Shown: positions 1,971 through 36,435, counted from the stretch's first letter. The stretch: DNA of 64,000 nt from Caulobacteraceae bacterium (GCA_052387215.1 JBQTJK010000040.1:2530-66529); one strand, 5' to 3'. Notes: generated by a model from the sequence alone, not told the origin. Numbers and translations: made by a program.

Positions 1971-1981
1971 TCGGACCAATC

Positions 1982-2974: not shown

Positions 2975-2989
2975 CGGAGCCAGAGAAAA

Positions 2990-4644: not shown

Positions 4645-5810
4645 GCGCCGACGACGAAATGCCTGCGAATGAAAGCGAACAACCGGCGCCGCAGGTGCAA
4701 CCCAAGACGCACGTGCCGCCCGCCACGGCCATTCGCGCCGCGCCGCCTAAGCCAAAGCAGCTCTCGCGTAAGACCCTGATGGCCGGTTCGCTGCTGTTGA
4801 GCTGTATCGTCGCGTTCGCGCTGGTGAACGGGCTTTCTGATCGCGAACGGCGAGGTTCGGCAGCTGAGGATTCGCAACCAGTGCAACCGGCATCGCCGCC
4901 AGAAAGCGTGCGCGACGCGCAAGCGGAATACAGCGCCAACGATCTCCGTCCTCCCATCGAGGAAGAGGGCCGTGACTATCTCTGGGGCGATCATCGTCCG
5001 GAGGGCGAAGGTGAAGCCTTGGACTCGGAAACAATCGCTGGGGCCGCGCCGCCCCCACCATCGCCCCTCGAACTCGAAGCGGATGCGGCGCGCATGTCGG
5101 CCATTCGTTTCGGCGGCGAGTCCCGTCGGAGCGTCCCGCCGCAGGCCGACGGCGCCGCGTCGCCTCCTGGTCCTGGCGCTGCCTTCGTCGCCAGCCAGCG
5201 CGGCCGCGACGATGGCGTACTGGACGCGAGCTATCGTCCGCCGCGTTCGCCTTATGCAATCCAGGCTGGATCGACGATCTCCGCGGCGCTCGTGACTGCA
5301 CTCAATTCCGACCAGCCCGGCCGCGTCGTCGCTCAAGTGACGGAAGACATCTACGACAGCGTCACCGGCGATCACCTGCTCGTGCCGCAGGGCTCACGCC
5401 TCCTGGGGACATACGACGCCGCCACCAATCACGGCGATCAGCGCCTGCTTGTGGTTTGGAATCGCCTGATCATGCCGAATGGCTGGTCGATTGCGCTTCG
5501 TGGCATGCCTGGAACGGACGCGGCGGGCGCGTCCGGCGTTCGCGATTCCGTCGATCAGCACCTCGGGCGGATTGCCGTCGCCTCGCTCCTCTCCGGCGCG
5601 CTCTCGGTGGCTGCAAACGCAGCCGAAGACGATGACAGCGACGCCTTGAGCCAAAATGTCGGCAACGCCGCGGCGCAGGAAGCCGCGCGCGTGGGCGGAC
5701 GCATCATTGACCGCGAACTGAATGTGCGCCCAACCTTGCACATCCGCGCCGGCGCGCCGGTGCGCGTGCTCGTGAGCCAAGACATCATCTTGAGGCCGTA
5801 TCCGCGATGA
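4641..5810 (+). CDS. trbI: Conjugal transfer protein TrbI (VirB10 family)
   Basis: TM anchor, AGSTISAALVTALNSDQPG, LLVPQGSRLLG, VWNRLIMPNG, RPTLHIRAG motifs. Confidence 0.93.
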   Translation: MSADDEMPANESEQPAPQVQPKTHVPPATAIRAAPPKPKQLSRKTLMAGSLLLSCIVAFALVNGLSDRERRGSAAEDSQPVQPASPPESVRDAQAEYSANDLRPPIEEEGRDYLWGDHRPEGEGEALDSETIAGAAPPPPSPLELEADAARMSAIRFGGESRRSVPPQADGAASPPGPGAAFVASQRGRDDGVLDASYRPPRSPYAIQAGSTISAALVTALNSDQPGRVVAQVTEDIYDSVTGDHLLVPQGSRLLGTYDAATNHGDQRLLVVWNRLIMPNGWSIALRGMPGTDAAGASGVRDSVDQHLGRIAVASLLSGALSVAANAAEDDDSDALSQNVGNAAAQEAARVGGRIIDRELNVRPTLHIRAGAPVRVLVSQDIILRPYPR

Positions 5811-6181
5811 ACAAACGGCCCGCCGGCCAGCGAGGACCCGATAAAGAGCAAACCGATCTCTTCGGCGCGGTCACTGTGCAACCACCGCAAAAGAAGACGC
5901 GCCGGGCGCCTCATGCTCATCCTCATTTCGCGCAAACACGATCGCCGTCTGCATTGACTTCGGCAAGCAAGGGCGTTGCAAGCGCCGCCGCGAATGGACT
6001 CCTGAACGTGCGTCAGGCCGCCCAGCGCCTTGGTCTTTCGAAATCGACGCTCGACAAAATGCGCTGCGCCGGCAAGGGTCCCCGCTTCATTAAGTCGACC
6101 GACAGAGCCGTCCGTTACGATCCTGTGGACCTCGATGCCTGGATCGCAAACCGGCGACGGACCAGCACCGCACAAGACTGA
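5807..6181 (+). CDS. AlpA/excisionase-like helix-turn-helix DNA-binding protein
   Basis: LLNVRQAAQRLGLSKSTLDKMRCAGKGPRFIK..VRYDPVDLDAWI is the winged-HTH pattern of Xis/AlpA proteins; ATGA overlap with trbI. Confidence 0.8.
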   Translation: MNKRPAGQRGPDKEQTDLFGAVTVQPPQKKTRRAPHAHPHFAQTRSPSALTSASKGVASAAANGLLNVRQAAQRLGLSKSTLDKMRCAGKGPRFIKSTDRAVRYDPVDLDAWIANRRRTSTAQD

Positions 6182-7001: not shown

Positions 7002-7814
7002 CTAGTTTTCGCTGACGCGAACCGGCTGGATCAACATCCGCTCGAGACGCAATTCCGCTGGGTCGCGAAATTGTTCGAGACCGATGATCATATCCTCGTG
7101 ACCATTCGCCGGTTGGGCGTGGTAGGTGCCAAACAACCGGTCCCACCACGGCAGATTGAAACCGAAATTGCTGTTCGTCTCATCCCGCCGCACCGAATGA
7201 TGCACGCGGTGCATGTCAGGCGTGACGACAATCAAGCGCAACATCCGATCAAGCGGCGCGGGAAGCTGGACGTTGGCATGATTGAACATCGTCGTGGCGT
7301 TGAGCAGCACCTCGAAGATCAAGACGGCGAGCGCCGGCGCGCCCAGCGCCAAGACCGCGCCTATCTTAATCAGCATCGAGAGCAAAATCTCGATCGGGTG
7401 AAACCGCACGCCGGTGGAGACGTCGAACTCAAGATCAGCATGATGGAGCCGATGAAGCCGCCACAGCCAAGGCACGGCGTGAAACACACGGTGCTGCCAA
7501 TAGATCACAAGATCGAGTGCGACCACTGAGCCCAAGATTGTAACCAGCGTTGGCGCGGCGATCACCTGAAACAGCCCCCAGCCATGCGATTCAGCTAAGA
7601 TCGCCGCACCGACCGCCGCCGCTGGAAAGGCGATGCGGAGCAAAACCGTGTTGATGATGGAAAGGCCGAGGTTACCTGGCCATCTGCTTGATCTTGCAAC
7701 GGCCTGAGACCGTTTGGGCGACATCACCTCCCAGATCGCCATGGCCGCGAATACGCCAACAAAAGCGCCGAGACGGATGAAAGGCTCGTTTGCCAACAAC
7801 GCTTGCCCAATCAC
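7002..7814 (-). CDS. Sterol desaturase / fatty acid hydroxylase family membrane di-iron enzyme
   Basis: His boxes YWQHRVFH, HRLHH, RFHP, HRVHHS; GTGA overlap with the upstream gene. Confidence 0.9.
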   Translation of the reverse strand: MIGQALLANEPFIRLGAFVGVFAAMAIWEVMSPKRSQAVARSSRWPGNLGLSIINTVLLRIAFPAAAVGAAILAESHGWGLFQVIAAPTLVTILGSVVALDLVIYWQHRVFHAVPWLWRLHRLHHADLEFDVSTGVRFHPIEILLSMLIKIGAVLALGAPALAVLIFEVLLNATTMFNHANVQLPAPLDRMLRLIVVTPDMHRVHHSVRRDETNSNFGFNLPWWDRLFGTYHAQPANGHEDMIIGLEQFRDPAELRLERMLIQPVRVSEN

Positions 7815-8593
7815 TCCAATTGGCTTTGAAAGGCGCGGATGCGCGCTGCATTCGCGCCAAGGTCGGATATGCCAACGCGCGACGTCGATCGCACCTCAAT
7901 GCGCGATCCCGCCGCCGCCGGCGAAACCTGCACCACGATGTCATCGACAAAGCCGAACCACAAAGAGCGTGCGCTCGCTTCGATACGGCCGCTTGCCGGC
8001 TCGGCGGCATCGATGCTCCATCCCTGCGCCTGCGCGGCGGCCAGCGCGGCCTCGAACGCTTCAGCGGGCTGCCGATCGAGCAGGATGGGCTGAATGTCGG
8101 GATAGGCGTTTTGTTGCAGAGCGCGCGCGGATTGGCCGGCCGCGGCGCCAAAGCGTGGATCGTCGGGGACGCGCGGATCAGCTTCGACCGGGTTGCCGCC
8201 CGGCACGCCGGCGCGCAGCTGCAGGACCCGCTCCGAAAACATCAATGGCGCGGCGGGATCGGAGACGATGTCGTGGATCGGCGGAACCGAAGCTGCTTGA
8301 TTGCGGACGTAACCAGCGTAGCCCAGCGCCAGCACCGGAATGATGAGCGCAAGCAGCGCACTGCCAATGCCGGTGCGGGGCCTCACCAAGGCTGCGAGCA
8401 GCAGCGCCACCAACGCGAGCCCAGCTGCGCCCATCAGCAGCATCGGCCCATAGCCCAGCGTCAGCGTCCCAAAGCCAACGCGCCAATCGATCAACCCATA
8501 ACGCGTCGCAAGCGCCGCCGCGGCGAAATAGACCGGCAGCGCAAGCGACACGAGAAGCGCAACCCCGACCAGAAAAGACCTGATCCGCGTCAT
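7811..8593 (-). CDS. DUF1499 domain membrane protein
   Basis: Three N-terminal TM helices, PPIHDIVSD, WFGFVDDIVVQV..RSTSRVGISDLGANAARI. Confidence 0.88.
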   Translation of the reverse strand: MTRIRSFLVGVALLVSLALPVYFAAAALATRYGLIDWRVGFGTLTLGYGPMLLMGAAGLALVALLLAALVRPRTGIGSALLALIIPVLALGYAGYVRNQAASVPPIHDIVSDPAAPLMFSERVLQLRAGVPGGNPVEADPRVPDDPRFGAAAGQSARALQQNAYPDIQPILLDRQPAEAFEAALAAAQAQGWSIDAAEPASGRIEASARSLWFGFVDDIVVQVSPAAAGSRIEVRSTSRVGISDLGANAARIRAFQSQLE

Positions 8594-9192
8594 CCACCCC
8601 TCCTTCTGGCCAGCTCCTGGCGCCAGCGGCGATAGCTTGGCCCGTCGTCTACGTCTTCCAATTCCCGCAGCATCTCAACATTCTTTCCCGCCAGGTTACG
8701 AAGCGTATCGGCGCGCGCCTGCGGCGTCGACCAGCGAACATTCGCGAACGGCAAATGCTGGCGCTCAGTTTGTGGGAAACCAACCAGCCAATAGCCGCCG
8801 TCGGGCGCGGGCCCCAGCACAGCGTCGGCGTTCTCCAATGCGTCGAATGCCGCCGCAATGTCGGCGGCGATGACCTGGGGCGCATCGCTGCCGATGAAAA
8901 TAAGTGACCCAGACGCCAATCGCTCGGAGATGCGCGTCATGCGTTCGCCCAGATCGCCTTCACCCTGGCCGATGACGTGCATGACGCCCGCAAACTGCAA
9001 AGGCTCGTCGGGCGTGATAGCTAAGTGAAGGCGCCAACGCGGGTCGCCGCCGAGCCTATCCAGAAGCTGTCCCAAGACGACGCGTTGGAAGCGGTGCGCC
9101 GTAACATCGCCCACGTCCGCTGCAAGCCGGCGCTTACCTTGGCCAAGAACGGGCCTGCGCGCCATCAAAACGAGATGACGCTCAGCGTTCAT
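8590..9192 (-). CDS. TIGR04282/DUF2064-like transferase (CofC-like nucleotide-diphospho-sugar transferase fold; arsenosugar-cluster associated)
   Basis: LVLMARRPVLGQGKRRLA, QGEGDLGERM, IGSDAP, VLGPAPDGGYWLVG, LEDVDD; start re-assigned to ATG 9192. Confidence 0.88.
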   Translation of the reverse strand: MNAERHLVLMARRPVLGQGKRRLAADVGDVTAHRFQRVVLGQLLDRLGGDPRWRLHLAITPDEPLQFAGVMHVIGQGEGDLGERMTRISERLASGSLIFIGSDAPQVIAADIAAAFDALENADAVLGPAPDGGYWLVGFPQTERQHLPFANVRWSTPQARADTLRNLAGKNVEMLRELEDVDDGPSYRRWRQELARRRGG

Positions 9193-9850
9193 AGAAGCGC
9201 GCAATGCGTTCGATCGGCGCGCCCACGCTGAACATAGTGAGACAGACAAGGTTGCGCGCGCTGCGCGCCACCCAGCCATCATCGCGCCAGCGCTGCGCCG
9301 ATGTAATCGCCGTACAAGGCAATGCCCTCAATCTACGCCGGCCGAGCCGGCGAACAAGATCGACATCCTCCATCAGCGGGAGCGGACGAAAGCCGCCAAG
9401 CGCCGCGTAAAGGCGCCGATGGATCAGGAGACCCTGATCTCCATAAGGCAGCGCAAGGACCTTGACCCGCAGCGCGACGAGCGCTTCCAACACGCGCGCT
9501 TGCCAGGCGCGATCGCCGAGCTTGAAGCGGAATACACACGCGATATCGGCCGCATTCGAGCTGCGCATATGCGCGTCGACATGTGTACGCCAATCCGCCG
9601 CGAGGACCGTGTCCGCGTGGAGAAAGAGCAGCCAGTCCTCTGTCGCCGCTTCGGCGCCAGCGTGCATTTGCTGTCCCCGCCCCCGCTCCGCTGTGACGAC
9701 GCGGGCGCCGGCGGCGCGGGCGAGGCGCACGCTCGCGTCTAGAGAGCCGCCATCAACGACGATGATTTCTTCGGCCGCCGCGATCGACCGAAGCGTCGCC
9801 GGCAAGCTCGCTTCGGCATTCAGCGCCGGGATGATGAGGGAAACACCCAT
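9182..9850 (-). CDS. TIGR04283-like family 2 glycosyltransferase (arsenosugar-cluster associated)
   Basis: SLIIPALNAE, VVDGGSLD, GRGQQMHAGA, LLFLHADT, YGDQGL, LMEDVDL, TSAQRW. Confidence 0.9.
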   Translation of the reverse strand: MGVSLIIPALNAEASLPATLRSIAAAEEIIVVDGGSLDASVRLARAAGARVVTAERGRGQQMHAGAEAATEDWLLFLHADTVLAADWRTHVDAHMRSSNAADIACVFRFKLGDRAWQARVLEALVALRVKVLALPYGDQGLLIHRRLYAALGGFRPLPLMEDVDLVRRLGRRRLRALPCTAITSAQRWRDDGWVARSARNLVCLTMFSVGAPIERIARFYER

Positions 9851-9873
9851 TGGTCCTACATGGTCGCTTCAGT

Positions 9874-9899
9874 TCGGGCTTGGCAAGGGCGGCGGTTAC
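9874..9899 (-). promoter_or_regulatory. ECF-sigma-type promoter GTAACC-N17-CGAA for the GT2-TIGR04282-DUF1499-desaturase operon
   Basis: Minus strand reads aGTAACCgccgcccttgccaagccCGAAct, about 25 nt before ATG 9850; resembles the SigF/ECF16 consensus; spacer one base longer than the other copies. Confidence 0.55.
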
Positions 9900-9920
9900 T
9901 GCGACGGCTGCGTAGAGGCT

Positions 9921-9946
9921 GCAACCCGCGTCGCGGTGGGCGCGTA
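9921..9946 (+). promoter_or_regulatory. ECF-sigma-type promoter GCAACC-N16-CGTA for dedA-oxidoreductase-mtnP
   Basis: GCAACC cgcgtcgcggtgggcg CGTA, 46 nt before GTG 9993. Confidence 0.65.
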
Positions 9947-9992
9947 TCCAGATTGGGCGGGCTCGTGCTGCATCGGTACGGGAGGATGAAGC

Positions 9993-10727
9993 GTGGCAGA
10001 TAGCGAGCAAGCGGCGCCGGTTCGGCGCGGCGTGATAGGGCGAGTGGCGCTGGTTGGCATGCTAGCGCTTGCGCTCCTTGCGGCATGGCAATTCGGCCTC
10101 TTCGACTATCTCAACTTCGAAGCCCTACGGGCGCAGCGCGAGGACTTGTCCGCCTTCGTTGCCGCCAATCGGGTTCTGGCGTTCGCCGCCTTTGTTGCGG
10201 TCTACGTGCTCGTGACGGCGCTCGCGTTTCCAGGCGCATTCTGGGTCACGATCCTAGGCGGCTATTTGTTCGGTTTGGCTGGCGGCGCCATCGCCACGAC
10301 CATCGGCGCCACTTTAGGCGCGACAGCGTTATTCGTGATCGCGCGCTATCTGCTTGCCGATACATTGCGCGCGCGCGCCGGTCCTTTTCTGAAGCGCTTG
10401 GAAGCCGGCTTCCAGGAAAACGCCGTCAGCTATTTGCTGACGCTGCGCCTTGTTCCGGTCGTGCCGTTCTTCATCGCCAATGTCGCACCCGCTTTTCTCG
10501 GCGCGCGTTTGGCCACGTTCGCCTGGACGACTGCGGTCGGCATCATCCCCGGCGTCATTGCTTACACCTGGATTGGCGCAGGCCTCGGCGCAGCGTTTGA
10601 CGCCGGCGAAGCGCCCGACATCGCAGCGTTCGCACGCGAGCTGGCCCCTGCTTTCATCGCGTTGGCGCTGCTTACCATTGCGCCGGCGATCTATCGCCAG
10701 TTCAAACGTCCAAGGACCGCCACCTAG
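9993..10727 (+). CDS. TVP38/TMEM64 (DedA / VTT domain) membrane protein
   Basis: FPGAFWVTILGGYLFG, GATLGA, LRLVPVVPF..N, TAVGIIPG; GGAGG ribosome site. Confidence 0.92.
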   Translation: MADSEQAAPVRRGVIGRVALVGMLALALLAAWQFGLFDYLNFEALRAQREDLSAFVAANRVLAFAAFVAVYVLVTALAFPGAFWVTILGGYLFGLAGGAIATTIGATLGATALFVIARYLLADTLRARAGPFLKRLEAGFQENAVSYLLTLRLVPVVPFFIANVAPAFLGARLATFAWTTAVGIIPGVIAYTWIGAGLGAAFDAGEAPDIAAFARELAPAFIALALLTIAPAIYRQFKRPRTAT

Positions 10728-10740
10728 GAAACAAATCGCA

Positions 10741-12171
10741 ATGGAAAGCATCAAAGCCGACATCGCCATCATCGGCGCCGGCTCGGCCGGACTGGTCGCG
10801 GCCTCGGGGGCCGCACAGCTCGGCCAGAGAGTCGTGCTGTTCGAAGGCGGCGAAATGGGCGGCGACTGCCTGAACTATGGTTGTGTGCCCTCAAAATCAC
10901 TGATCGCTGCGGCGCGCGCAGCGGAAGGCGCGCGCGCCTCCGGCCCTCTCGGCTTGGAGATGACGCCGCCACGGACCGACTGGCCCCGCGTCAGAGCGCA
11001 CGTGCGTGGCGTGATCGACACAATCGCGCCAAACGACAGCCAAGAGCGCTTCGAGGGCCTGGGCGTGCGGGTCGTGCGCGAACGCGCGCGCTTTGCCGAC
11101 CCGCGTACGATCGTCTCAGAGAGCGTGCGCGTACGCGCGCGCATCATGGCGATCGCCACCGGCGCACGCGCCGGCGCTCCACCCATTCCGGGCTTGAGCG
11201 AAGTCCCCTATCTCACCAACGAAACCATCTTCGACATCGAGACGCTGCCCGCTCATCTTGTGATCCTGGGCGCAGGCGCGATTGGCTTGGAACTTGGACA
11301 AGCGTTTCGCCGCCTGGGCGCCGAGGTTACGCTGCTTGAGGCCGGCACGCTCTTCGGCGGCAAAGACAAAGGGGCGGCGGACGTTCTGCGCGCAAAGATG
11401 GCCGCAGAAGGGGTGACCCTGCTCGAATCCACGAACGTGCAGCGGATCGAAAACGCGGACGGCGCCATCGCCGCACACATCGAAAGAAACGGCGCCGCCA
11501 CACGGATCGAAGGCACGCATCTACTGGTCGCAACTGGGCGCAAACCCAACATCGAAGATCTAGGACTCGAAGCCGCTGGCGTCGCGTTCAGCGCGCCCGG
11601 TGTTACAACCGACGCAACACTGCGCACGTCCAATCGGCGCATCTACGCACTTGGCGACGTCGCCTCGCGCGAGCAGTTCACGCATGCCGCCGGCCTCCAT
11701 GGCTCATTGTTCGTACGCAACGCCCTCTTCAAACTATCACCCGGTCGCGCTGATGCGCCGCCCATCCCTCGTGTCATCTACACTGAGCCCGAATATGCAG
11801 CTGTTGGCCTTTCAGAGGCGGAAGCGCGGGAACGCTGGGGCGATCAGGTGCGCGTACTCTTTGTGCCGATGCACGACAATGACCGCGCCCAAACCGAGCG
11901 CGATGTTGAAGGTTTCGCCCGCATCATCGTTCGCAACACTGGCGATATCCTGGGCGCGGTCATCGTCGGCGCGCATGCCGGCGAAACAATTGCGACCGTC
12001 GCGCTGGCGATGGCCAACAAACTCAGAATAGCCGCCTTCACCTCAAGCTTTGTGCCCGCCTATCCGACCCGCGCGGAAATCTTGAAGCGCGCCGCAGGCC
12101 AGTTCTACACAGAGAGCCTGTTTTCCTCGCGCACCAAGCTTTTGGTACGCCTGCTCGCACATCTGCCTTGA
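10741..12171 (+). CDS. FAD-dependent pyridine nucleotide-disulfide oxidoreductase (dihydrolipoamide dehydrogenase/MerA-like family, not MerA)
   Basis: GAGSAG (FAD), GGDCLNYGCVPSK redox disulfide, GAGAIG (NAD(P)H), GD motif; start ATG 10741; no HMA domain or C-terminal Cys-Cys. Confidence 0.9.
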   Translation: MESIKADIAIIGAGSAGLVAASGAAQLGQRVVLFEGGEMGGDCLNYGCVPSKSLIAAARAAEGARASGPLGLEMTPPRTDWPRVRAHVRGVIDTIAPNDSQERFEGLGVRVVRERARFADPRTIVSESVRVRARIMAIATGARAGAPPIPGLSEVPYLTNETIFDIETLPAHLVILGAGAIGLELGQAFRRLGAEVTLLEAGTLFGGKDKGAADVLRAKMAAEGVTLLESTNVQRIENADGAIAAHIERNGAATRIEGTHLLVATGRKPNIEDLGLEAAGVAFSAPGVTTDATLRTSNRRIYALGDVASREQFTHAAGLHGSLFVRNALFKLSPGRADAPPIPRVIYTEPEYAAVGLSEAEARERWGDQVRVLFVPMHDNDRAQTERDVEGFARIIVRNTGDILGAVIVGAHAGETIATVALAMANKLRIAAFTSSFVPAYPTRAEILKRAAGQFYTESLFSSRTKLLVRLLAHLP

Positions 12172-12181
12172 GAGGAATCCG

Positions 12182-13057
12182 ATGACCACATGGCGCTTGG
12201 GCGTGATCGGCGGTTCGGGGCTTTATGACATCGACGCCATAGAGGACCGGCGCTGGTCGCGCATCCTCAGTCCCTGGGGTGAGGCTTCGGACGAGGTTCT
12301 GACCGGCGTCCTCCACGGCGTGCCGCTTACATTTCTGCCAAGGCACGGCAGAGGCCACAGGCTCTCACCGTCAGCCATCAACGCGCGCGCCAATATCGAC
12401 GTGCTGAAGCGGGCGGGCTGCACCGACATTCTCTCCATCGCAGCAGTAGGATCTTTGCGCGAAGATCTGCCGCCCGGCGCTTTTGTGCTCGCGGATCAAT
12501 ATATCGATTGCACGCGCGCGCGCCCGCAGAGTTTCTTTGGTGAAGGGCTCGTTGCGCATGTCGCGATGGCCAACCCGGTCTGCCCGCGGCTCTCGGCGCT
12601 GGTGCGCGACGCCGGCGCCCGCGCCGGTGTCGAGATCGGCGGCGGCGCTACATATTTGGCGATGGAGGGTCCGCAATTTTCAACGCGGGCGGAGAGCCGT
12701 CTTTACCGCAGCTGGGGATGCGACGTCATTGGCATGACGGCGATGCCAGAAGCACGCTTGGCGCGCGAGGCCGAACTTCCCTATGCAGCACTTTGCATGG
12801 TCACCGACTACGATTGCTGGCGTACAGATGATGCGGATGTCGATGTCGGCGCCATCCTTTCGGTGATGCGCGCCAATGCCGAGGCTGCCCGCCGCGTGAT
12901 TGCCGACCTGGTGCAGCATCTCAGTCAAACCCAGCGTCCGCCTTCGCCGATCGACACCGTGCTCGATTCCGCGATCGTCACCGATCCAGCGATCTGGGAT
13001 CAAGCGCTCATGAGCAAGCTGGACGCGATCTGCTCGCGGCGTTTCGCCAAAACGTGA
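12182..13057 (+). CDS. mtnP: S-methyl-5'-thioadenosine phosphorylase family (PNP/MTAP)
   Basis: GVIGGSG, LPRHGRGH, EGPQFSTRAES, IGMT..PEARLAREA, VTDYDCW. Confidence 0.92.
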   Translation: MTTWRLGVIGGSGLYDIDAIEDRRWSRILSPWGEASDEVLTGVLHGVPLTFLPRHGRGHRLSPSAINARANIDVLKRAGCTDILSIAAVGSLREDLPPGAFVLADQYIDCTRARPQSFFGEGLVAHVAMANPVCPRLSALVRDAGARAGVEIGGGATYLAMEGPQFSTRAESRLYRSWGCDVIGMTAMPEARLAREAELPYAALCMVTDYDCWRTDDADVDVGAILSVMRANAEAARRVIADLVQHLSQTQRPPSPIDTVLDSAIVTDPAIWDQALMSKLDAICSRRFAKT

Positions 13058-13071
13058 AAAGCGCCGGCCGC

Positions 13072-14028
13072 TCAGGCCGAACAGCTGCCGCCGCCAAGAA
13101 CACAAAATTTGGCGCAGTGGCGGTGGTTGAGCTTCACTGGCGCCACCGCGCCCTTAAGCGTTGGTCCAAGTTCGAAGCCCTGATCGTACGGCAACAAGGT
13201 GCAGGCAAGCACGGCCGGGGCGGCAGCGCCGGCGCGCTTGACCAGCATGCGCGCGCTTGCACACATCATCGCGCGCGGATCGACGTTGAGAATGTCCCAG
13301 CATTTCTCGCTGATCTCCGGCACGTCGACGCTCTCGTCCATCTCTGGGAAAAGCATGAGCTTCGCGGGATCGTAAGCATTGATCCCCCAGCCTTGGGCCG
13401 CGCTCAAGCGCGCATAGCCGGCCCGCGCCTGCGCTTCGCTTTCATGCCAAAGCGTCCGCCCCGCAAGTGAAATCCCAAATCCGTTGGCGATGAGCCAAGC
13501 GATGCCGTCAATCGTCTCCTCAAAGCCGCCGGGGCCGCGCTCTTCGTCATGACGGTCCGCGCTATAATGATCGAGGCTCACCCGAAGCGCCAATCGCGAA
13601 GCGTAAGCCTGTCGCAGGCCAAGAAGTGCGGCGCGCGGTTTGGGCCGCATCATCGGCCGCATCGCGTTGGTGAGAATGAGCACCAGATGCCCGCGCGCCA
13701 GCACCATTTCGGCGAGATCGCCCATGTGCGGGTTCATGAAAGGCTCGCCGCCGGTGAACCCAACTTCAATTGGCTCTGGGCTAAGAGCTTCGGCCTCCGC
13801 CAGGAACGGCGCGAGGTCGGCGGGGGTGAAATAGCTCAGCCGGTCGTTGGTGGGCGAGCTCTCAATGTAGCAGTTGGCGCATGTGATGTTGCAGAGCGTG
13901 CCAGTATTGACCCAGAGCGTCTTCAAGCTGTCGAACGCCACCACCGCCCGCGCCTCACCTTTCGCGGTGAGATCGGGATCCGAGAATTTGCCGGCGCCGA
14001 TGTGGCGGGTTTGTGCATCCACGCTCAT
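13072..14028 (-). CDS. Radical SAM protein with Cys-rich C-terminus, ArsS-like
   Basis: LWVNTGTLCNITCANCYIESSP (CxxxCxxC), FTGGEPF, LTN; C-terminal MC..C..HCAKFCVLGGGSC; start ATG 14028 overlaps the arsM stop (TGATG). Confidence 0.85.
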   Translation of the reverse strand: MSVDAQTRHIGAGKFSDPDLTAKGEARAVVAFDSLKTLWVNTGTLCNITCANCYIESSPTNDRLSYFTPADLAPFLAEAEALSPEPIEVGFTGGEPFMNPHMGDLAEMVLARGHLVLILTNAMRPMMRPKPRAALLGLRQAYASRLALRVSLDHYSADRHDEERGPGGFEETIDGIAWLIANGFGISLAGRTLWHESEAQARAGYARLSAAQGWGINAYDPAKLMLFPEMDESVDVPEISEKCWDILNVDPRAMMCASARMLVKRAGAAAPAVLACTLLPYDQGFELGPTLKGAVAPVKLNHRHCAKFCVLGGGSCSA

Positions 14029-15089
14029 CAGCAGCATCCCGGCGCCGGCGCCGCCCCAACGTCTGCCTCTGCGAAAGGCGCTTCGGCGCCGCAACCGGGA
14101 AATATCCCGAAGTGTCTCGCGAAATCGCCGATGAACTCGAAGTGCGGCGTAAAGCGGCTTTCCCGCAACATGCGCCAAGTGTTGCCGCACACCGCAAAGA
14201 CCTTACCCGCCTCGATCCGGTGATGGGCATCAAGCTCAAACACAGTTTCGGCGCCAGTGACGCCGCCACGATAGATGACGGCCTGGCCATAATCTTCGCA
14301 CGCAGGCTCTAGATCGGGAATGTTGTAGAGCCGGTAGGTCGCCGAGTAAAAGCGCGCCGCGCCGAGTAGCGAGGCGAGTGTTGCGTCGGTAATGGCGAGC
14401 GCCCTCGATTTGACCAAGCGCGGATCTGGAAATCCGCTCGCGCGCGCCAAGTGTTGAAAGTCGTTCCAGTAAAGCGCGCCCGCCAAACACTCCCCGTGCA
14501 GCACCGGATCAGTCTTCAGCGCTTCGGGCAGACGCCGGTCAGCGTAGACATCGGCGAAGTAAAATTCGCCGCCAGCTTTGAGCAGCGCACGCGCCGCCGC
14601 GAACACAGCAGCCTTGTTCTCAACCAGATTGATCACGCAATTGGAGACAATCACGTCGAAGCTCTCCGGTTGGAGCCCAAGAGTGTCCAATTGGGTGATA
14701 TCGCCGTCCACGAAAGTCACGTTTGACCGGGAATAGCCGAACTGCTCGCGGTGCCACTCGGCGTGTTGACGGGCGACGCTCAGCTGCTCAGGTGTTGCAT
14801 CGACGCCAACGACCGCGCCGCGCGCGCCGACAAGTTGCGCCAACACGTACACATCTCGGCCCGCGCCGCAGCCCAGATCGAGAACGCGCGCGCCCTCTAG
14901 CTTCGCTGGTGCAACTAGCCCACAACCGTAGTAACGAGCTTCGACCTCGGGATGGACCCGTCTAAGGGCCGCTTCGACCAGGGCGCCCGGTCGATCGGCG
15001 GTCGAGCAGGCGTCGGTGCGTAAGTCGCGCGATCCGCCCAACACCTTGCCGTAATAATCGCGCGCATTCGCAAGCCCGCCATCCTCCAT
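14028..15089 (-). CDS. arsM: Arsenite S-adenosylmethionine methyltransferase (ArsM/AS3MT-type)
   Basis: Four Cys contexts typical of AS3MT: DLRTDACST, RYYGCGL, VSNCVINL, GECLAGALYW; SAM motif LDLGCGAGRD; ends PGCC; GGAG 8 nt before ATG 15089. Confidence 0.85.
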   Translation of the reverse strand: MEDGGLANARDYYGKVLGGSRDLRTDACSTADRPGALVEAALRRVHPEVEARYYGCGLVAPAKLEGARVLDLGCGAGRDVYVLAQLVGARGAVVGVDATPEQLSVARQHAEWHREQFGYSRSNVTFVDGDITQLDTLGLQPESFDVIVSNCVINLVENKAAVFAAARALLKAGGEFYFADVYADRRLPEALKTDPVLHGECLAGALYWNDFQHLARASGFPDPRLVKSRALAITDATLASLLGAARFYSATYRLYNIPDLEPACEDYGQAVIYRGGVTGAETVFELDAHHRIEAGKVFAVCGNTWRMLRESRFTPHFEFIGDFARHFGIFPGCGAEAPFAEADVGAAPAPGCC

Positions 15090-15118
15090 CGACACATCTC
15101 CGCTTTGTTTTCATTGAA

Positions 15119-15144
15119 TACGGGCGGCAGGCCCCAACGGTTTC
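15119..15144 (-). promoter_or_regulatory. ECF-sigma-type promoter GAAACC-N16-CGTA for arsM and the radical SAM gene
   Basis: Minus strand: GAAACC gttggggcctgccgcc CGTA, 29 nt before ATG 15089. Confidence 0.7.
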
Positions 15145-15174
15145 TGAACGGGCGGCCTTTGACCGATACCATAG

Positions 15175-15200
15175 GAAACCGAACGACCCGCTGGAGCGTA
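15175..15200 (+). promoter_or_regulatory. ECF-sigma-type promoter GAAACC-N16-CGTA for the DUF547 gene
   Basis: GAAACC gaacgacccgctggag CGTA, 31 nt before ATG 15232; back-to-back with the arsM copy. Confidence 0.7.
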
Positions 15201-15231
15201 GCATTCCCTGGGGCGAAGTCTGGGGGCCTTC

Positions 15232-16023
15232 ATGGGAGTTAAGAACTTGATACGGCGGTGTCTGCTGGCAGGCTTGACCCTCTCGTTTGTTCCTTCGGCG
15301 GCGATCGCAGCCGACGATCAGCCCTTCGATACGCTGCTGTCGCGCTATGTGGTGGTCTCGCCTGACGGGGTGAACCGGGTCCGGTATCGCGCCTGGGCCG
15401 CCAACACCGCTGACCGGGGCGCACTCGACGCCTATGTCGCCGCACTCGAACGCGAAGTCCCTTCCCGGATGGCGCGCAATGAAGCCTTTGCCTATTGGGC
15501 CAATCTCTACAACGCGGTGACGCTTCAAACCGTGCTGGAGAATTATCCTATCCGCTCGATCCGCGATGTTCGCAGCCGCACGCTCGATCCCCGCGGACTG
15601 ATCGGTCCGTGGCGAACCGAGCGCGTTCGCGTTGAGGGCCGACGCCTTACGCTTGACGCCATCGAGCATGACATTTTGCGGCCTACCTTTGGCGATCCGC
15701 GTGTGCACTATGCGGTCAATTGCGCCTCGATCGGCTGCCCCAACCTTCCGACCCGCGCCTGGCGCGCGGCAACGCTCGATCAAGACCTAGATGCCGCCGC
15801 ACGCGCCTATGTCAATCACAGACGCGGCGCGCGGTTCGACGCCAATGGGCGGCTGGAAGTCTCCAGTATCTATAACTGGTTCGCGAGGGATTTCGGCGGT
15901 TCACCAAATGGCGTGCTCGCGCATTTGCGCACCTACGCTGCGCCTGCGCTTTCGGAGCGTCTGCGATCGACACGCGTCGTCGCCGGCCATTCCTATGATT
16001 GGTCATTGAACGACGTAAACTAA
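15232..16023 (+). CDS. DUF547 domain exported protein
   Basis: Signal peptide; AYWANLYNAVT, TLDAIEHDILR, DPRVHYAVNCASIGCP, SSIYNWF..DF, YDWSLND. Confidence 0.92.
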   Translation: MGVKNLIRRCLLAGLTLSFVPSAAIAADDQPFDTLLSRYVVVSPDGVNRVRYRAWAANTADRGALDAYVAALEREVPSRMARNEAFAYWANLYNAVTLQTVLENYPIRSIRDVRSRTLDPRGLIGPWRTERVRVEGRRLTLDAIEHDILRPTFGDPRVHYAVNCASIGCPNLPTRAWRAATLDQDLDAAARAYVNHRRGARFDANGRLEVSSIYNWFARDFGGSPNGVLAHLRTYAAPALSERLRSTRVVAGHSYDWSLNDVN

Positions 16024-16043
16024 GCCATGCGAGCCAGTCTCGC

Positions 16044-16698
16044 TCACTCTCGTTCCTCCCTCTCGGGCCGGTACCATCGTTCGAGCCGCTCTGGCGCAAC
16101 GCCTAAATGATAGAGCCCTACCAGAATAGCGCTCATGAACTCGCGCCGCGCCACGCCATCGCGCAGAAACCGCCGCGCCGAAGTGGTCATCGGCGCACTG
16201 AGCTTCGCAATCCGCCCGGCCCGGCGCAGCCGCTGAAGAATCTCAACATCCTCAAAAAGCGGTAGATCGCGATAACCGCCGATCTGGTCGTAGGTCTCTC
16301 GCGTCACAAACAGACCCTGATCGCCATAGGTAAAAGCGCTCGTGTTGATACGGCTCATGAAGGCATAGACCCTGAGCAAGGGGTGGGCGTCATCGAAGGC
16401 GAGCCTGAAACACCCGGCGCTGACACCCGGGCGCGCCAGCGCCGCCTTAATCAGTACACGTGCTTCAGGCGGAGGCTTGGAATCCGCGTGAACGAAGAAG
16501 AGCGCCTCGCCCGAGGCCGCGCGCACTCGTCACCAATACGGCGCCCGCGGCGCGCGCCTCGGCATGCGTCTCATCGCGCGACCCACCATCGGCGACGACA
16601 ATGTCGTCGAAACCTTGTGACCGCAGCGCCGCAACAAGCGCGCCAATGCGCGCGCCTTCGTCGAGAGCCGGAATGACAACGCTGATGCGCATCTTCAA
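16044..16698 (-). pseudogene. Second TIGR04283-like GT2 glycosyltransferase, broken by an internal deletion/frameshift at 16516-16524
   Basis: Frame A: MRISVVIPALDE..VADGGSRD..VTSARG; frame B: AASGEALFFVHADS..YGDQGL..LFEDVE..TTSARRF; the GRGxQMxAGA segment present in the paralogue is missing. Confidence 0.85.
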
Positions 16699-17300
16699 GG
16701 TCGCGACACGCGCATGACCTCCACCCTCACCGCCTCCAGCACGCGCGGCGCGTCGCGCCGCATGCCGGCGCGAATAAGGCCAGACGGCAGCGGCGCGCGT
16801 GGCGCCAGGTAGAAATCATAGTGAAGCCGCGTCGCCTGCCCGCCTTCGCGTGGCTCCAGCACCCACGAGCCTTGCATGGAAGCCAGATCGCCGCTGATTC
16901 GATTGACCCGGATCACGCGCTCGGGCTCATACTCGGAACGAAAGCGCAGCCGCAACGTCGGCAGCAGCGCCAGCCAACGTATGCGATGCTCGCGCACGTC
17001 GCTCAATCCGTCGGCGGCGCGCTCGATTATGGCGCATGATTGAAGGCCCGGAACATAATGAGGGGCTCGTGCACAATCGAGCATAACCCTCCAGACGAGA
17101 GCCGGCGGCGCTGCAATGTCGATCGCCGCCTGCACCCGCCCACCTGGGCCCGCCGCGTCAACCACACGCGCGATCGCTTCGCCGCGCTCCAACCGCGCCT
17201 CGTCATCGGTGTTCCATTGGGCCATCGCGATGGTGGGCCAAAGCACAAGCGCGCACGCCGCTAGAAGCGCCGCCCCCACCCTTCGATGCAAAGCAAGCAT
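16695..17300 (-). CDS. SRPBCC/START (polyketide cyclase-like) ligand-binding protein with signal peptide
   Basis: AAIDIAAPPALVWRVMLDC..PHYVPGL..C, GDLASMQGSWVLEP; start ATG 17300, 4 nt after the PiT stop. Confidence 0.8.
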   Translation of the reverse strand: MLALHRRVGAALLAACALVLWPTIAMAQWNTDDEARLERGEAIARVVDAAGPGGRVQAAIDIAAPPALVWRVMLDCARAPHYVPGLQSCAIIERAADGLSDVREHRIRWLALLPTLRLRFRSEYEPERVIRVNRISGDLASMQGSWVLEPREGGQATRLHYDFYLAPRAPLPSGLIRAGMRRDAPRVLEAVRVEVMRVSRP

Positions 17301-17304
17301 GGGC

Positions 17305-18387
17305 TTAGCCTCCAATGCCGTGAAAGATAAGCCAAGCACAAACCGCCGCGAACGGCAGCGTCGCCACCCAAGACGCCAACACAGTGCGCACGGCTCGCCA
17401 GTCGACGGTCCGCGCCTGGGCCCCAACGCCCGCGATCGCGCCAACTGACACGTGCGTCGTTGAGACCGGCAACGCAAACGCACTAGCGCTCAAGACTAAT
17501 GTCGCCGTGACAAGATTGGCGGTGAGACCTTGCGCGGGATCCAAGCGATTAAGGCGCAAGCTCATGGTCTCGGCGACGCGGCGCGAAAATAGGAACCCGC
17601 CCGCAACCATCGCCACCCCGGTCAGCACCGCGGGTCCCGCCCCGCCAAAGCCTTGCGCCACTAGAAGCAAAGCGGCGAGCTTGGGCGTGTCATTGGTGCT
17701 TCGGGCAAAGCATACAATTGCCGCCGACGCGATGTGCACGCGGTCGAGCACGGCGCCAGCGGCCACGCGCACCTGCGTCTCTAGCAAGCGATTGCAAACT
17801 TCAGCACTTGAGAAGGTAGCGCTCGCCCGCTGCATGCTCGGTGAGCGCGCTGCGGCCGTTGCCGCTGGTGCAAACTCGGCTTCACGGGTGACACACATGC
17901 AATCGCGTCCGCGCAGGCGCTCACCGGCGAGCCACTGCGCGACAAAGCCAAAGGCAGCCGAGACGATCGGGCTTAACAGGAGCGGCGCGACGAAGACCGC
18001 CGCGAGCGCGCCGAGATTGACATCGCCCGCGGCAAGCCCCGCTCCGAGCAATCCGCCGATGAGAGCGTGGGTGGTGGATATGGGCAACGCCGCCCGCGTA
18101 GCGGCCAGCACAGTGATGGCCGCGCCCGCTGCGACCGCGGCCAAGAAAGCTGGATCGGCGATGACCGCGTCGCCAACCAGGCCCTTGCCGGAAAACTGGC
18201 GGGTAAGGCCGCTCGCCAACACCACCGACACAACGCTACCCGCCGCCGTGGCGAAGCTCGCCCAGAGAAGCGCTGCGCGATAGCCGAGCGCGTTCGATCC
18301 CCAGACCGTGGCGAAGCCCTTGAAATTGTCATTGGCGCCGTTGGCGAACGCGAGGAACACACCTGCCGTGAGGATGAATATCTCCAT
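17305..18387 (-). CDS. Inorganic phosphate transporter, PiT family
   Basis: Signature motifs GANDNFKGFAT and (A)RSTNDTPK, PISTTHALIG, PVSTTHVSVG; many TM helices. Confidence 0.9.
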   Translation of the reverse strand: MEIFILTAGVFLAFANGANDNFKGFATVWGSNALGYRAALLWASFATAAGSVVSVVLASGLTRQFSGKGLVGDAVIADPAFLAAVAAGAAITVLAATRAALPISTTHALIGGLLGAGLAAGDVNLGALAAVFVAPLLLSPIVSAAFGFVAQWLAGERLRGRDCMCVTREAEFAPAATAAARSPSMQRASATFSSAEVCNRLLETQVRVAAGAVLDRVHIASAAIVCFARSTNDTPKLAALLLVAQGFGGAGPAVLTGVAMVAGGFLFSRRVAETMSLRLNRLDPAQGLTANLVTATLVLSASAFALPVSTTHVSVGAIAGVGAQARTVDWRAVRTVLASWVATLPFAAVCAWLIFHGIGG

Positions 18388-18448
18388 GATGCGCGCCGCC
18401 AGCTAATGGCGCGCGCCATGGGCGAGCGCTCCAGTATTCCCGAGAAAC

Positions 18449-18474
18449 TACGCGCGAGAGCAATCGGCGGATGC
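18449..18474 (-). promoter_or_regulatory. ECF-sigma-type promoter variant GCATCC-N16-CGTA for PiT-SRPBCC-GT2
   Basis: Minus strand: GCATCC gccgattgctctcgcg CGTA, 61 nt before ATG 18387. Confidence 0.55.
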
Positions 18475-18504
18475 AGAGGGGTCATCGACTCGCACGACTT
18501 GTGT

Positions 18505-18530
18505 GAAACCAAAGGCTGTCACCGCGCGTA
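18505..18530 (+). promoter_or_regulatory. ECF-sigma-type promoter GAAACC-N16-CGTA for msrB
   Basis: GAAACC aaaggctgtcaccgcg CGTA, 9 nt before ATG 18540. Confidence 0.7.
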
Positions 18531-18539
18531 CAAGCGCTC

Positions 18540-19028
18540 ATGGACCTCATGCGACGCGGCGCGCTTTCCGGCGCCCTGCTTGTCACAATGCTCGGGAGCG
18601 CGTCGGCGCAGACGCTGGATTTCTCCAGCGCGCCTGAACGGCGGTTAAGCGAACAAGAATGGCGCCGGCGCCTCACGTCCAGCGCCTATAACATTCTGCG
18701 GCGCCATCATACGGAGCTTCCTTTCTCGAGTCCGCTGAATGGCGAGCGGCGAGCGGGCGTCTATGCGTGCGGGGGCTGCGCCTTGCCGCTCTTCCAGTCA
18801 CATTGGAAGTACAATTCCGGGACCGGTTGGCCGAGTTTTTTTCAGGTCATAGACGGTCATGTCGGAACCCGCGTCGACCGCGGCTTCGCCATGGTGCGCA
18901 CCGAATATCATTGCGCCCGATGCCTCGGCCACCAGGGACACCTCTTCGATGACGGGCCTCGCCCAAGCCGTCTGCGTTACTGCAACAATGGCGCGGCTTT
19001 GAGCTTCACGCCCAACAGCGCAGACTAA
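18540..19028 (+). CDS. msrB: Peptide-methionine (R)-S-oxide reductase MsrB with export signal
   Basis: CxxC pairs (CGGC, CARC), SGTGWPSF, RTE, GHLFDDGP, RYCNNG. Confidence 0.95.
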   Translation: MDLMRRGALSGALLVTMLGSASAQTLDFSSAPERRLSEQEWRRRLTSSAYNILRRHHTELPFSSPLNGERRAGVYACGGCALPLFQSHWKYNSGTGWPSFFQVIDGHVGTRVDRGFAMVRTEYHCARCLGHQGHLFDDGPRPSRLRYCNNGAALSFTPNSAD

Positions 19029-19160
19029 AGGCGCTCGCACAGGCGCCGTTGCGGCGCGGTGCGGAGATTCGCATCACGGAACCCGCTTCGCGCGATGATC
19101 TACGCCTTCGCAGAGCGCGTACCTCAGCAGACGCCGTTTGCGCGTCCAGTGGAGGTCTTC

Positions 19161-19763
19161 ATGATCGCGAAAACATCAATCGCTGCTTTGGCTGCACTGA
19201 GTGCGGCTTTGTTGATCGGCGGCTGCACCATGCATGGGTCCGGCGACGGCGGGGCGAGCGCCGCAAGCGGCGAACGCAGTGTGACGGTTGGCGGCGCGCC
19301 CATGTATCCCTCGCGCAATATCGTCGAGAACGCCGTCAACTCCCGCGATCACACGACGCTCGTCGCCGCAGTCCAGGCGGCGGGCTTGGTGGAGACGTTA
19401 TCGGGGCCCGGCCCTTTCACCGTCTTTGCGCCGACAAATGCGGCGTTCGATAAACTCCCGCCCGGCACGGTGGACACCTTGGTCCAGCCCGCCAATCGCG
19501 CCACGCTGACGCGCATCCTGATCTATCATGTTGTCCCAGGGCGGCTGACGTCGGCGGACTTGGCGCAGCGCGTGCGCGCCGGCAACGGCCGCGCGGTGCT
19601 CACAACTGCGCAGGGCGCGACGCTCACGGTGACCCAATCAGGCAGCGGCGTAACTGTCACTGATGCAGCTGGTGGCGCGGCGACGGTCACTATCGCGGAC
19701 GTGCTTCAATCCAACGGCGTCATTCACGTCGTCGATACGGTGCTCATGCCGCCGCAAAGCTGA
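19161..19763 (+). CDS. Fasciclin (FAS1) domain lipoprotein
   Basis: GGAGG then ATG 19161; lipobox IGGC; GPFTVFAPTNAAF, YHVVPG, SNGVIHVVDTVLMP. Confidence 0.93.
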   Translation: MIAKTSIAALAALSAALLIGGCTMHGSGDGGASAASGERSVTVGGAPMYPSRNIVENAVNSRDHTTLVAAVQAAGLVETLSGPGPFTVFAPTNAAFDKLPPGTVDTLVQPANRATLTRILIYHVVPGRLTSADLAQRVRAGNGRAVLTTAQGATLTVTQSGSGVTVTDAAGGAATVTIADVLQSNGVIHVVDTVLMPPQS

Positions 19764-21792: not shown

Positions 21793-22007
21793 ACCCCGCC
21801 AACAGCGGGATCGACGCGTCCGGGAAACAATCAGTTCATAATGCAACGGCGCGAGCGCGCGTTTTCGCCTTCGATCCAGAGGTAGCAACACCAGGAAACA
21901 CCGACACGCTAGCCACCTTCGCGCATGTTCCGGGCGTGGAGCCCGCGGGCGTTCGTTAGAACCCCAGCGCCCAATTCCTCATCGGCGCACGGGTGAGGAC
22001 GGGGCGG

Positions 22008-22080
22008 TGGGCCCGCCTGGACTCGAACCAGGAACCAGACCGTTATGAGCGGCCGGCTCTAACCATTGAGCTACGGGCCC
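22008..22080 (-). tRNA. tRNA-Ile2 (anticodon CAU, lysidine-type); 3' end encoded as ACCG, so no complete CCA
   Basis: GGGCCCGTAGCTCAATGGTTAGAGCCGGCCGCTCATAACGGTCTGGTTCCTGGTTCGAGTCCAGGCGGGCCCA folds into a cloverleaf with a paired G1-C72 (not fMet); overall sequence fits Ile2 better than elongator Met. Confidence 0.9.
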
Positions 22081-22958
22081 CCAATAGTCGCCAAGCGCCG
22101 CATGTGCGTTGAGCCGGTCCCGGTCGTCAAGCCGGGATGATCTCAGCCAGGGGCACACTGGGAAAGCGCCGCATCGAGGAGGCGCGGACGCCGTTACGCG
22201 GCCCCCATTTCGCGGTCCGCCCGACGCGTCGTCTCAAGCTGCATCAGCCATCTGTCGCCTCAACTCGCGTCAATCGAACTGAACCCCTGGACCGCCCTCG
22301 ATCGCCTCACCGCTTCTTTCGCCATCTCACCTCCGGGTGCGGATGGCGTAAACCGCGAGCGACAAAGAGCTTTTCAAATTCTGGATTGCGCTCGATCAAA
22401 CGTCTCATTTCGTCGTAGTCAAAGTCGCGGGGCTCCGGGGACGCGGGTTCGCGCGTCTCGAAAAAAATGCGCCGTTGGTTCGGCGCTCATGACGCGAAAA
22501 CCCGCGTCCCCGCAGTCTGCTTTCACCGGGCCGCTCAACGGCGGTTTTTCACACCGTCCGGCGGTCCCCGATGGCGTGCGGGTTGCGCTGTTCACGCAAT
22601 CCCCGGTGCGTCCTCCCACAAGTTATGGCGCTCTGTGGGCTTCCCCTCCTACGCGCTTGCGCGCTTCGGAGCGTCACGCTCGACTGCCTCGCTCCGTCAT
22701 TGGTTCGAACAGGGATCCAACTGCTCTCCGGAACGAAACGATGGAGGCATTGTACACGCGTTTCAGCTGGGTCGGATTGAATCGCATCTATCCCCGCAAA
22801 TGGGAGCGCGAGCCTTCAGGCCCGCATGTGCGCTTGGTCTTGATATGCTTGCGGTAATGCGCGCCTGAAGGCGCGCGCTCCAGCCTTCATACGAGCGCGC
22901 TCAGGGGTCGGATCCGGCCACATCTATCCCCGCGTCTCGCGCCTGCTACAAACGGTCC

Positions 22959-36191: not shown

Positions 36192-36273
36192 ACCCCCAGG
36201 TTTAGGGCCCATCTCAAAACGTTCCGGACGCCGATTCCAGCGGTTGATTTCGTTTCGCTTGCCGAATCGGTAC

Positions 36274-36288
36274 GTTCCTGTTATGTTC
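36274..36288 (+). promoter_or_regulatory. Alphaproteobacterial LexA (SOS) box GTTC-N7-GTTC overlapping a sigma70-like -10 element
   Basis: GTTCCTGTTATGTTC; TTGCCG-N17-TATGTT at 36259-36287; about 150 nt upstream of rpoH. Confidence 0.6.
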
Positions 36289-36435
36289 TTTCGCTAAGAA
36301 TTGCCTAACGCCTGTCACGGCGAGGGCTTGAACGGGTCCCTATATTAGGGGCCGTGGCGGCAACCGGCCTGCCCTCTTGCGCGTACTGGAGAGGCATACC
36401 AACAGACCGCCCTGAGGAGGGGTTCTAACAACAAC

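Follow-up and report, generated by a model that had tools for sequence, protein, structure and literature searches.

Genes for the arsenite methyltransferase ArsM are usually treated as parts of ArsR-controlled detoxification operons. Here we describe a 64,000-nucleotide stretch of DNA from a Caulobacteraceae bacterium (GCA_052387215.1, JBQTJK010000040.1:2530-66529), the whole of which we call the window and number from its first letter, in which arsM lies in a cluster of seven transcription units, every one preceded by a two-box motif of the kind read by extracytoplasmic function (ECF, group IV) sigma factors. Our preferred reading, held with moderate confidence, is that these boxes are ECF promoters, most of them (class A) read by an ECF16-type sigma factor encoded elsewhere and the one before a fasciclin-domain gene by an ECF11-type factor.

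Three of the described systems closest to this locus are ECF systems. In Caulobacter crescentus, the sigma factor SigF binds GTAACC-N16-CGAA and is under negative, cysteine-dependent control by NrsF, a membrane anti-sigma factor with conserved cysteines; chromate and cadmium elicit the response. The SigF regulon (the sulfite-oxidase-like CC2748, DUF2282/DUF692/DUF2063 and DoxX) has no arsM, radical SAM or glycosyltransferase (GT) genes (PMC3511200). Across ECF16 factors the consensus reads (T/C)GTAAC-N17-CGAA, and their regulons have Msr genes in common (PMC8315932). EcfF of the EcfF-OsrA system of Bradyrhizobium japonicum (diazoefficiens) has GTAAC(g,a)-N14-15-(t,c)CG(t,a) as its consensus, and transcription starts 6 bp past the -10 box. 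Three methionine sulfoxide reductase genes are under its control, and at one of them only 8 bp separate the -10 box from the annotated start codon (PMC3420878). For the ECF11 pair RpoE-ChrR, the consensus is TGATCC-N16-CGTA (PMC5507510) and the RpoE promoter of Rhodobacter sphaeroides reads TGATCC(N15)GCGTA (PMC5036791). Targets of RpoE in R. sphaeroides include fasciclin (RSP_1409) and rpoHII (PMC7074977, PMC5507510); fasciclin is a published RpoE-ChrR target (PMC7074977, PMC10949492), in Azospirillum too, and over-expressed RpoE of Pseudomonas syringae binds degenerate -35 boxes, for instance gcATCC and gaAaC (PMC5507510). No publication linking arsM or arsenosugar genes to an ECF sigma factor was found in the literature searched.

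The locus resembles the C. crescentus SigF-NrsF system in its bipartite promoters and in its layout as a small stress regulon of several divergent units; it differs in the boxes themselves, which read G[A/C]AACC and CGTA, and in the sigma gene, which is not in the window. The EcfF consensus admits both CGT and CGA, placing CGTA within the EcfF range, and the 8-bp distance at the methionine sulfoxide reductase gene has its counterpart at msrB, where the distance is 9 nt here and 8-9 nt in relatives. The differences are that EcfF is H2O2-inducible, with no arsenic genes listed in its regulon, and that position 2 of the -35 box is A or C here, not T. RpoE-ChrR is matched by the fasciclin promoter and by fasciclin regulon membership; it is unlike the locus in that the arsM-cluster and msrB promoters carry AACC, not ATCC, that orthologues elsewhere are SigF-type, and that no rpoE-chrR pair is present in the 64-kb window.

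Putative bipartite promoters of the arsM cluster

A first-pass annotation of the window had listed seven sites, described as intergenic, correctly oriented and 9-61 nt from a start codon. All seven are present, six exactly as listed; the seventh, GTAACC-N17-CGAA before the GT operon, spans 9873-9899 on the minus strand rather than 9874-9899. This putative ECF16-type site stands 22 nt before the ATG at 9850, back-to-back with GCAACC-N16-CGTA (9921-9946, +), which precedes by 46 nt the GTG at 9993 of an operon encoding a VTT membrane protein, a MerA-like oxidoreductase and methylthioadenosine phosphorylase (MTAP). The second pair consists of two copies of GAAACC-N16-CGTA, one (15119-15144, -) 23 nt before the GTG at 15095 of the arsM-radical SAM operon and the other (15175-15200, +) 31 nt before the ATG at 15232 of a DUF547 gene. 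The third pair joins GCATCC-N16-CGTA (18449-18474, -), 61 nt before the ATG at 18387 of an operon for a PiT transporter, an SRPBCC protein and a broken GT, to GAAACC-N16-CGTA (18505-18530, +), whose -10 box is followed after 9 nt by the ATG of msrB. The msrB mRNA is probably leaderless because of this short distance. Unpaired, the ECF11-type TGATCT-N16-CGTA (19096-19121, +) lies 39 nt before the ATG at 19161 of the fasciclin gene. One site is found per transcription unit in all seven cluster units, the measured distances agree with the range first given, and the three back-to-back pairs, which account for six of the seven sites, are confirmed, their -35 boxes lying 21, 30 and 30 nt apart.

Five cluster sites, together with a GCAACC-N16-CGTA site (36360-36385, +) of the same class 50 nt upstream of rpoH and 17 kb away from the cluster, fit G[T/A/C]AACC-N16(17)-CG[T/A]A, with 5/6 matches to the ECF16 -35 box; these constitute class A. 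The first-pass identification of ECF-type promoters is upheld, ECF16 being the best fit for the five sites (six with rpoH) and the orthologues carrying GTAACC-N16-CGAA, often by sigF-nrsF. The presence of the motif before a periplasmic-type msrB matches the typical content of ECF16 regulons, which include Msr genes. Least certain are the GT-operon and PiT sites, and of all sites the GT-operon one most of all.

These boxes are far more frequent in the window than expected. AACC-N16-CGTA has five copies in 64 kb where 0.59 would be expected, four of them in the cluster and the fifth before rpoH; every copy is intergenic and in the correct orientation, 9-50 nt ahead of a start codon, and none lies within a gene. 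The wider pattern GNAWCC-N16-CGTA gives seven matches against 0.46 expected, a count that 0 of 100 shuffles reached. With up to two mismatches allowed, the literature consensus GTAACC-N16-CGAA shows no enrichment across the window (42 matches versus 38 expected), so that what marks the boxes out is their placement and conservation rather than the number of loose matches. A position weight matrix built from related loci ranked 18505 (+) and 15119 (-) at the top of the window; the matrix penalises CGTA, so that the other sites rank lower, and its ranking cannot count as independent of the pattern searched for. A sigma-70- or RpoH-type reading of the boxes was rejected, since no sigma-70-like promoters were found in the cluster intergenic regions and the motif is unlike CTTG-N17-CYTATNT. 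The Neisseria sigmaE/msrAB motif (GTMAGBWTT/CGTCTAAH), also compared, bears no resemblance to the cluster sites.

Conservation in relatives and linkage to sigF-nrsF

Two metagenome contigs are the close relatives with the same cluster: L086, with ArsM 91% and DNA 83% identical, and L082, in which the whole cluster is syntenic at 70-85% amino acid identity. The arsM and DUF547 promoters of both contigs read GAAACC-N16-CGTA, the boxes being invariant and the spacers and inter-promoter DNA diverged. The VTT promoter orthologue in L082 is GTAACC-N15-CGTA, and its PiT promoter is GCATCC-N16-CGTA, as in the window; the same GCATCC-N16-CGTA stands back-to-back with the msrB promoter in L163 (the PiT/msrB intergenic regions, too unequal in length to align, were compared as site lists). 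At msrB, GAAACC-N16-CGTA with the ATG 8-9 nt past the -10 box is kept in L162-L165, where MsrB is 62-70% identical, and in Brevundimonas variabilis (L166), where it is 58% identical. The gene divergent from PiT in L082 (1160-2532, -), preceded by GAAACC-N16-CGTA, is not msrB and encodes 433 amino acids of a family that was not recognised; with no msrB beside PiT in that contig, msrB-fasciclin is a separate module that only happens to abut the arsM cluster in the window. Two other DNA runs were short contigs of essentially the same strain and covered no promoter variants. Taken as sequence comparison, the related genomes support a function of the boxes. The conservation upstream of orthologues that the first-pass annotation proposed to examine extends to arsM, DUF547, VTT, msrB, fasciclin and PiT, and only partly to the GT-operon site.

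The more distant comparison, which reached other alphaproteobacterial orders, covered 80 genome loci with an ArsM orthologue. There are 38 strict copies of GTAACC-N16-CGAA in 1.34 Mb of related loci, where shuffles give 1.15, and these copies, often back-to-back, precede orthologues of the arsM, radical SAM, MerA-like, GT, DUF547 and MTAP genes in carriers that include Erythrobacter, Aurantiacibacter, Phenylobacterium, Methylocapsa and Methylosinus. The GT orthologues in L006 and L047 have GAAACC/GTAACC-N16-CGAA upstream. As in the window, arsM in many alphaproteobacterial genomes keeps company with a radical SAM enzyme, MTAP, GTs and membrane proteins downstream of ECF16-type promoters. Seven loci (L004, L006, L031, L041, L063, L100 and L102) carry, next to the cluster, a gene for an ECF sigma factor with an NrsF gene (PF06532) after it. 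Specifically, Phenylobacterium L004 combines, beside its arsM cluster, a sigF-nrsF pair with an autoregulatory GTAACC-N16-CGAA and the classical divergent DUF2282/MbnB operon, as in the SigF-NrsF system of C. crescentus. The sigF promoter of Methylocapsa L006 is back-to-back with the promoter of the radical SAM operon, and sigF-nrsF-arsM arrays are found in Hyphomicrobium (L031, L041, L063) and in the metagenome loci L100 and L102. In Hyphomicrobium the box ahead of sigF itself is GAAACG/GTAACA-N15-CGTA; therefore, GAAAC and CGTA variants exist within SigF-NrsF systems.

A further match, GAAACC-N16-CGAA, lies inside sigF just upstream of nrsF in all five arrays (L031 8957-8982, L041 8955-8980, L063 8906-8931, L100 130-155 and L102 1748-1773). 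It may represent an internal SigF-dependent promoter for nrsF-arsM, or the trace of a conserved peptide, ETFAGDE.

Because ECF16-type promoters precede nearly all of its operons and are conserved, the cluster looks like part of a metal/oxidant stress regulon rather than a classical ArsR operon. Several observations weigh against an ECF16 factor as the reader of class A. The window sites depart from the SigF consensus twice, in the second base of the -35 box and in the -10 box, which is CGTA for CGAA, and they share CGTA, mostly GCGTA, with ECF11 promoters. Conservation is poor at the GT-operon site, reading GCATCC-N17-TGAA at the aligned position in L082, and this GCATCC in place of GTAACC blurs the class boundary; spacer length is also not constant, orthologous sites differing by 1 nt. 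Neither the 64-kb window nor the loci of the closest relatives contain an ECF sigma or NrsF gene. The gene rpoH is an established target of ECF11 and not of ECF16 factors. Lastly, RNA-seq contigs of Methylocapsa aurea span the orthologous locus without a break, intergenic regions included, and their ends thus give no start sites; no RNA runs carrying the window sequence were found, and metatranscriptome matches to Methylosinus were weak only.

The tetramer found 16 nt after GNAACC upstream of cluster genes in related loci is CGAA in 34 cases and CGTA in five. This rarity of CGTA elsewhere, the consistent use of GAAACC and CGTA at msrB, arsM and DUF547 in Terricaulis-like genomes and Brevundimonas, and the recognition of GTAACC-N16-CGAA by C. 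crescentus SigF, a related family member, would all suit an uncharacterised Caulobacterales ECF factor, specific for GAAACC-N16-CGTA, that took over the arsM cluster from SigF in the Terricaulis lineage. We regard this as doubtful: characterised ECF16 members accept CG(T/A), the Hyphomicrobium box upstream of sigF already joins GAAAC or GTAAC to CGTA, the msrB geometry is that of an EcfF target, and no candidate for such a sigma factor was found.

A second promoter class and the rpoH leader

The first-pass annotation had treated the sites as copies of one motif. This does not hold, as AACC and ATCC -35 boxes form separate classes in relatives, with the fasciclin site of ECF11 type and the PiT site fitting neither class firmly. 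Each orthologous set keeps one base at position 4 of the -35 box, A in msrB, arsM, DUF547 and rpoH and T in fasciclin and PiT, a pattern that speaks for two sigma factors telling the classes apart. All four orthologous positions ahead of the fasciclin gene (the window, L163, L164 and L165) read TGATC[CT]-N16-CGTA; the match is perfect (TGATCC) in L164 and L165, and TGATCT in the window is one mismatch away. In 2.1 Mb of loci the strict ECF11 pattern has seven matches, three of them before fasciclin and one before a photolyase-like gene, which was recognised from its N-terminal sequence alone. Photolyase is a typical ECF11 target. AACC-type sites have three mismatches to the ECF11 -35 box, and on these comparisons the fasciclin site is classed as an ECF11 (RpoE-ChrR) type promoter, not as a degenerate copy of the AACC sites; two oxidative-stress ECF regulons would therefore meet at the locus. 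The GCATCC box of PiT differs by one base from GCAACC and by two from TGATCC, and its promoter could be assigned to either class. The proposal of one regulon driven by an ECF sigma factor rather than ArsR accordingly survives in part: probable ECF control, most likely ECF16, and the lack of an arsR gene stand, whereas two motif classes and a weak GT site speak against a single unit.

Two further sites touch the ECF11 class. In L165 (4143-4191, -), TGATCC-N16-CGTA overlaps GTAACC-N16-CGTA through a shared CGTAACC ahead of a fasciclin-DsbD-like operon, which may be served by both ECF classes. In the window, GGATCC-N16-CGTA (22890-22915, -) is one mismatch from the ECF11 consensus and antisense to an open reading frame (ORF) at 22467-22868; it was rejected as a promoter, as no gene lies downstream on that strand, and is probably a chance match, although an antisense or small RNA may start from it.

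A single ECF11-type sigma factor (RpoE-ChrR) with a relaxed -35 requirement (nnA[A/T]CC) and CGTA as main determinant could in principle read every site. Such a factor would explain why all sites but one have CGTA and six of the seven GCGTA, as in the R. sphaeroides RpoE promoter, why fasciclin and rpoH(II), both published RpoE targets, are included, and why L082 has GCATCC in place of GTAACC, and it would accord with the degenerate -35 boxes (gcATCC, gaAaC) bound by over-expressed P. syringae RpoE; it would not explain why the -35 type is fixed per set (GAAACC in 6/6 msrB promoters, TGATC[CT] in 4/4 fasciclin promoters, A at position 4 in arsM, DUF547 and rpoH). With GAAACC three mismatches away from TGATCC, and with orthologous clusters that use GTAACC-N16-CGAA and adjoin sigF-nrsF, not rpoE-chrR, we judge it unlikely.

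The rpoH gene (sigma-32; 36436-37350, +; TIGR02392, 368 bits) has GGnAAC-N17-CGTA upstream, the boxes being unchanged in four Terricaulis-like genomes and the spacer variable. Judged by its RpoH matches, the organism lies close to Terricaulis, within the Caulobacterales. Two more blocks of the rpoH leader (36230-36360), upstream of the ECF-type box, are conserved in the four genomes, TTGATTTCnTTTCGCTTGC...GTTATGTTC and CTTGAAnnnnTCCCTATAT. These are probably promoters of housekeeping-sigma and sigma-32 type, which together with the ECF-type box would give rpoH at least three promoters.

That the boxes are chance matches or dimeric transcription factor sites instead of promoters is very improbable, for although the SigF consensus with two mismatches is not enriched in the window and the back-to-back pairs resemble inverted repeats, the five exact AACC-N16-CGTA copies all occupy a promoter position, single copies with no partner stand before rpoH and before msrB in relatives, pair distance varies (21-33 nt) while internal spacing is fixed at 16 nt, and both boxes are kept across deep divergence.

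Gene content, setting and proposed regulation

The cluster opens with a four-gene operon (7002-9850, -) encoding a TIGR04283 GT (9182-9850), DUF2064 (8590-9282), DUF1499 (7811-8593) and a fatty-acid hydroxylase-like protein (7002-7814). A three-gene operon (9993-13057, +) follows, with genes for a VTT/TVP38 membrane protein (9993-10727), a MerA-like FAD disulfide oxidoreductase (10741-12171) and MTAP (12182-13057). The next operon (13072-15095, -) contains arsM (14028-15095) and a radical SAM gene (13072-14028), joined by a stop/start overlap, ATGA. Beyond the DUF547 gene (15232-16023, +) lie genes for a PHO4/PiT transporter (17305-18387), an SRPBCC/polyketide-cyclase-like protein (16695-17303) and a second, broken GT2 (16044-16690), all in 16044-18387 (-), and then msrB, with a signal peptide (18540-19028), and the fasciclin-domain gene (19161-19763), which are separate transcription units within 18540-19763 (+). 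The second GT2 gene (16044-16690, -) has a 35-nt deletion near 16528 relative to L086 and is intact in both L082 and L086; the deletion shifts the frame, pointing to a pseudogene or an assembly error.

ArsM matches solved structures over its full length (5evj, E=9e-107; 4fr0, E=1.6e-79) and keeps all four arsenic-binding cysteines, in the motifs DAC, YGCG, SNCV and GECL; its score against the NCBIfam arsenite-methyltransferase model is below the cut-off (152 versus 263). By homology, the methyltransferase is a bona fide ArsM. The GT passes the cut-off of TIGR04283, 'arsenosugar biosynthesis glycosyltransferase' (214 versus 182). The radical SAM protein reaches 59 bits against ArsS (TIGR04167; cut-off 300), the match being confined to the radical SAM core, and for this reason the label "arsenic cluster" is reasonable, not proven. 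The ArsM homologue with its four cysteines is what the cluster has in common with ArsR-repressed ars operons that contain arsM; unlike them, it has several divergent units, each with an ECF-type promoter, and no ArsR-family gene in the cluster or in the 64-kb window (best E=0.21; the cluster ORFs are all assigned to other families). Neither arsB/acr3 nor arsC was seen in the cluster. The first-pass statement that the cluster has no arsR and no sigma gene is correct and, for arsR and ECF sigma genes, extends to the whole window.

Directly upstream of the cluster lies a conjugative type IV secretion set (106-6181, +) comprising TraG/VirB4-like, TrbJ-like, TrbL/VirB6, VirB8, VirB9/CagX, TrbI/VirB10 and HTH_17 genes, and a tRNA-Met gene (22006-22080, -) is located just beyond the cluster region. 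The GC content at third codon positions of ORFs is ~0.72-0.76 in 0-20 kb versus 0.78-0.84 further on. No integrase was found by Pfam in 19.8-22 kb. One possibility is that an integrative conjugative element or island carries the arsM cluster as cargo. A full-length serpin gene (24340-25575, -; PF00079, 323 bits) is also present in the window; serpins are uncommon in Alphaproteobacteria.

The boxes with their enrichment, placement and conservation, and the linkage of orthologous clusters to sigF-nrsF, are observed; for this organism, we infer the acting sigma factor, the start sites and the inducing signal. The class A sigma factor (SigF/EcfF, ECF16-type) would be held inactive by the six-helix NrsF/DUF1109 membrane anti-sigma factor until NrsF is inactivated by an oxidising or thiol-reactive stress, as it is in studied species by chromate, cadmium, H2O2 and HOCl. 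Here arsenite is a candidate inducer. The freed sigma factor would bind core RNA polymerase and start transcription ~6-8 nt after CGTA, yielding a leaderless msrB mRNA; the divergent operons would be co-induced from their back-to-back promoters, with rpoH as a further class A target. The fasciclin gene, and possibly PiT, would answer to an ECF11 sigma factor.

The promoter type is known. An arsM-radical SAM-GT cluster among its regulon members, conserved from one order to another and at times fused to sigF-nrsF, seems not to have been described before. More tentatively, and as a possibility to which we give only limited credence, the arsM-radical SAM-GT pathway (organoarsenical/arsenosugar-like) may be a conserved core target of SigF-NrsF across Alphaproteobacteria, co-transcribed in some genera as sigF-nrsF-arsM and independent of ArsR, with arsenite or a thiol-reactive metalloid sensed directly through the NrsF cysteines; the Terricaulis lineage would then use a shifted dialect, GAAACC-N16-CGTA, feeding into rpoH.

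If the preferred reading, ECF16-type control of class A and ECF11-type control of fasciclin, is true, two ECF promoter classes interleaved within 700 bp provide a natural case for studying ECF16/ECF11 promoter discrimination. The poorly understood SigF/NrsF system would gain a candidate for a concrete biochemical output, and the synthesis of organoarsenical (or related) compounds may be a stress-induced envelope response.

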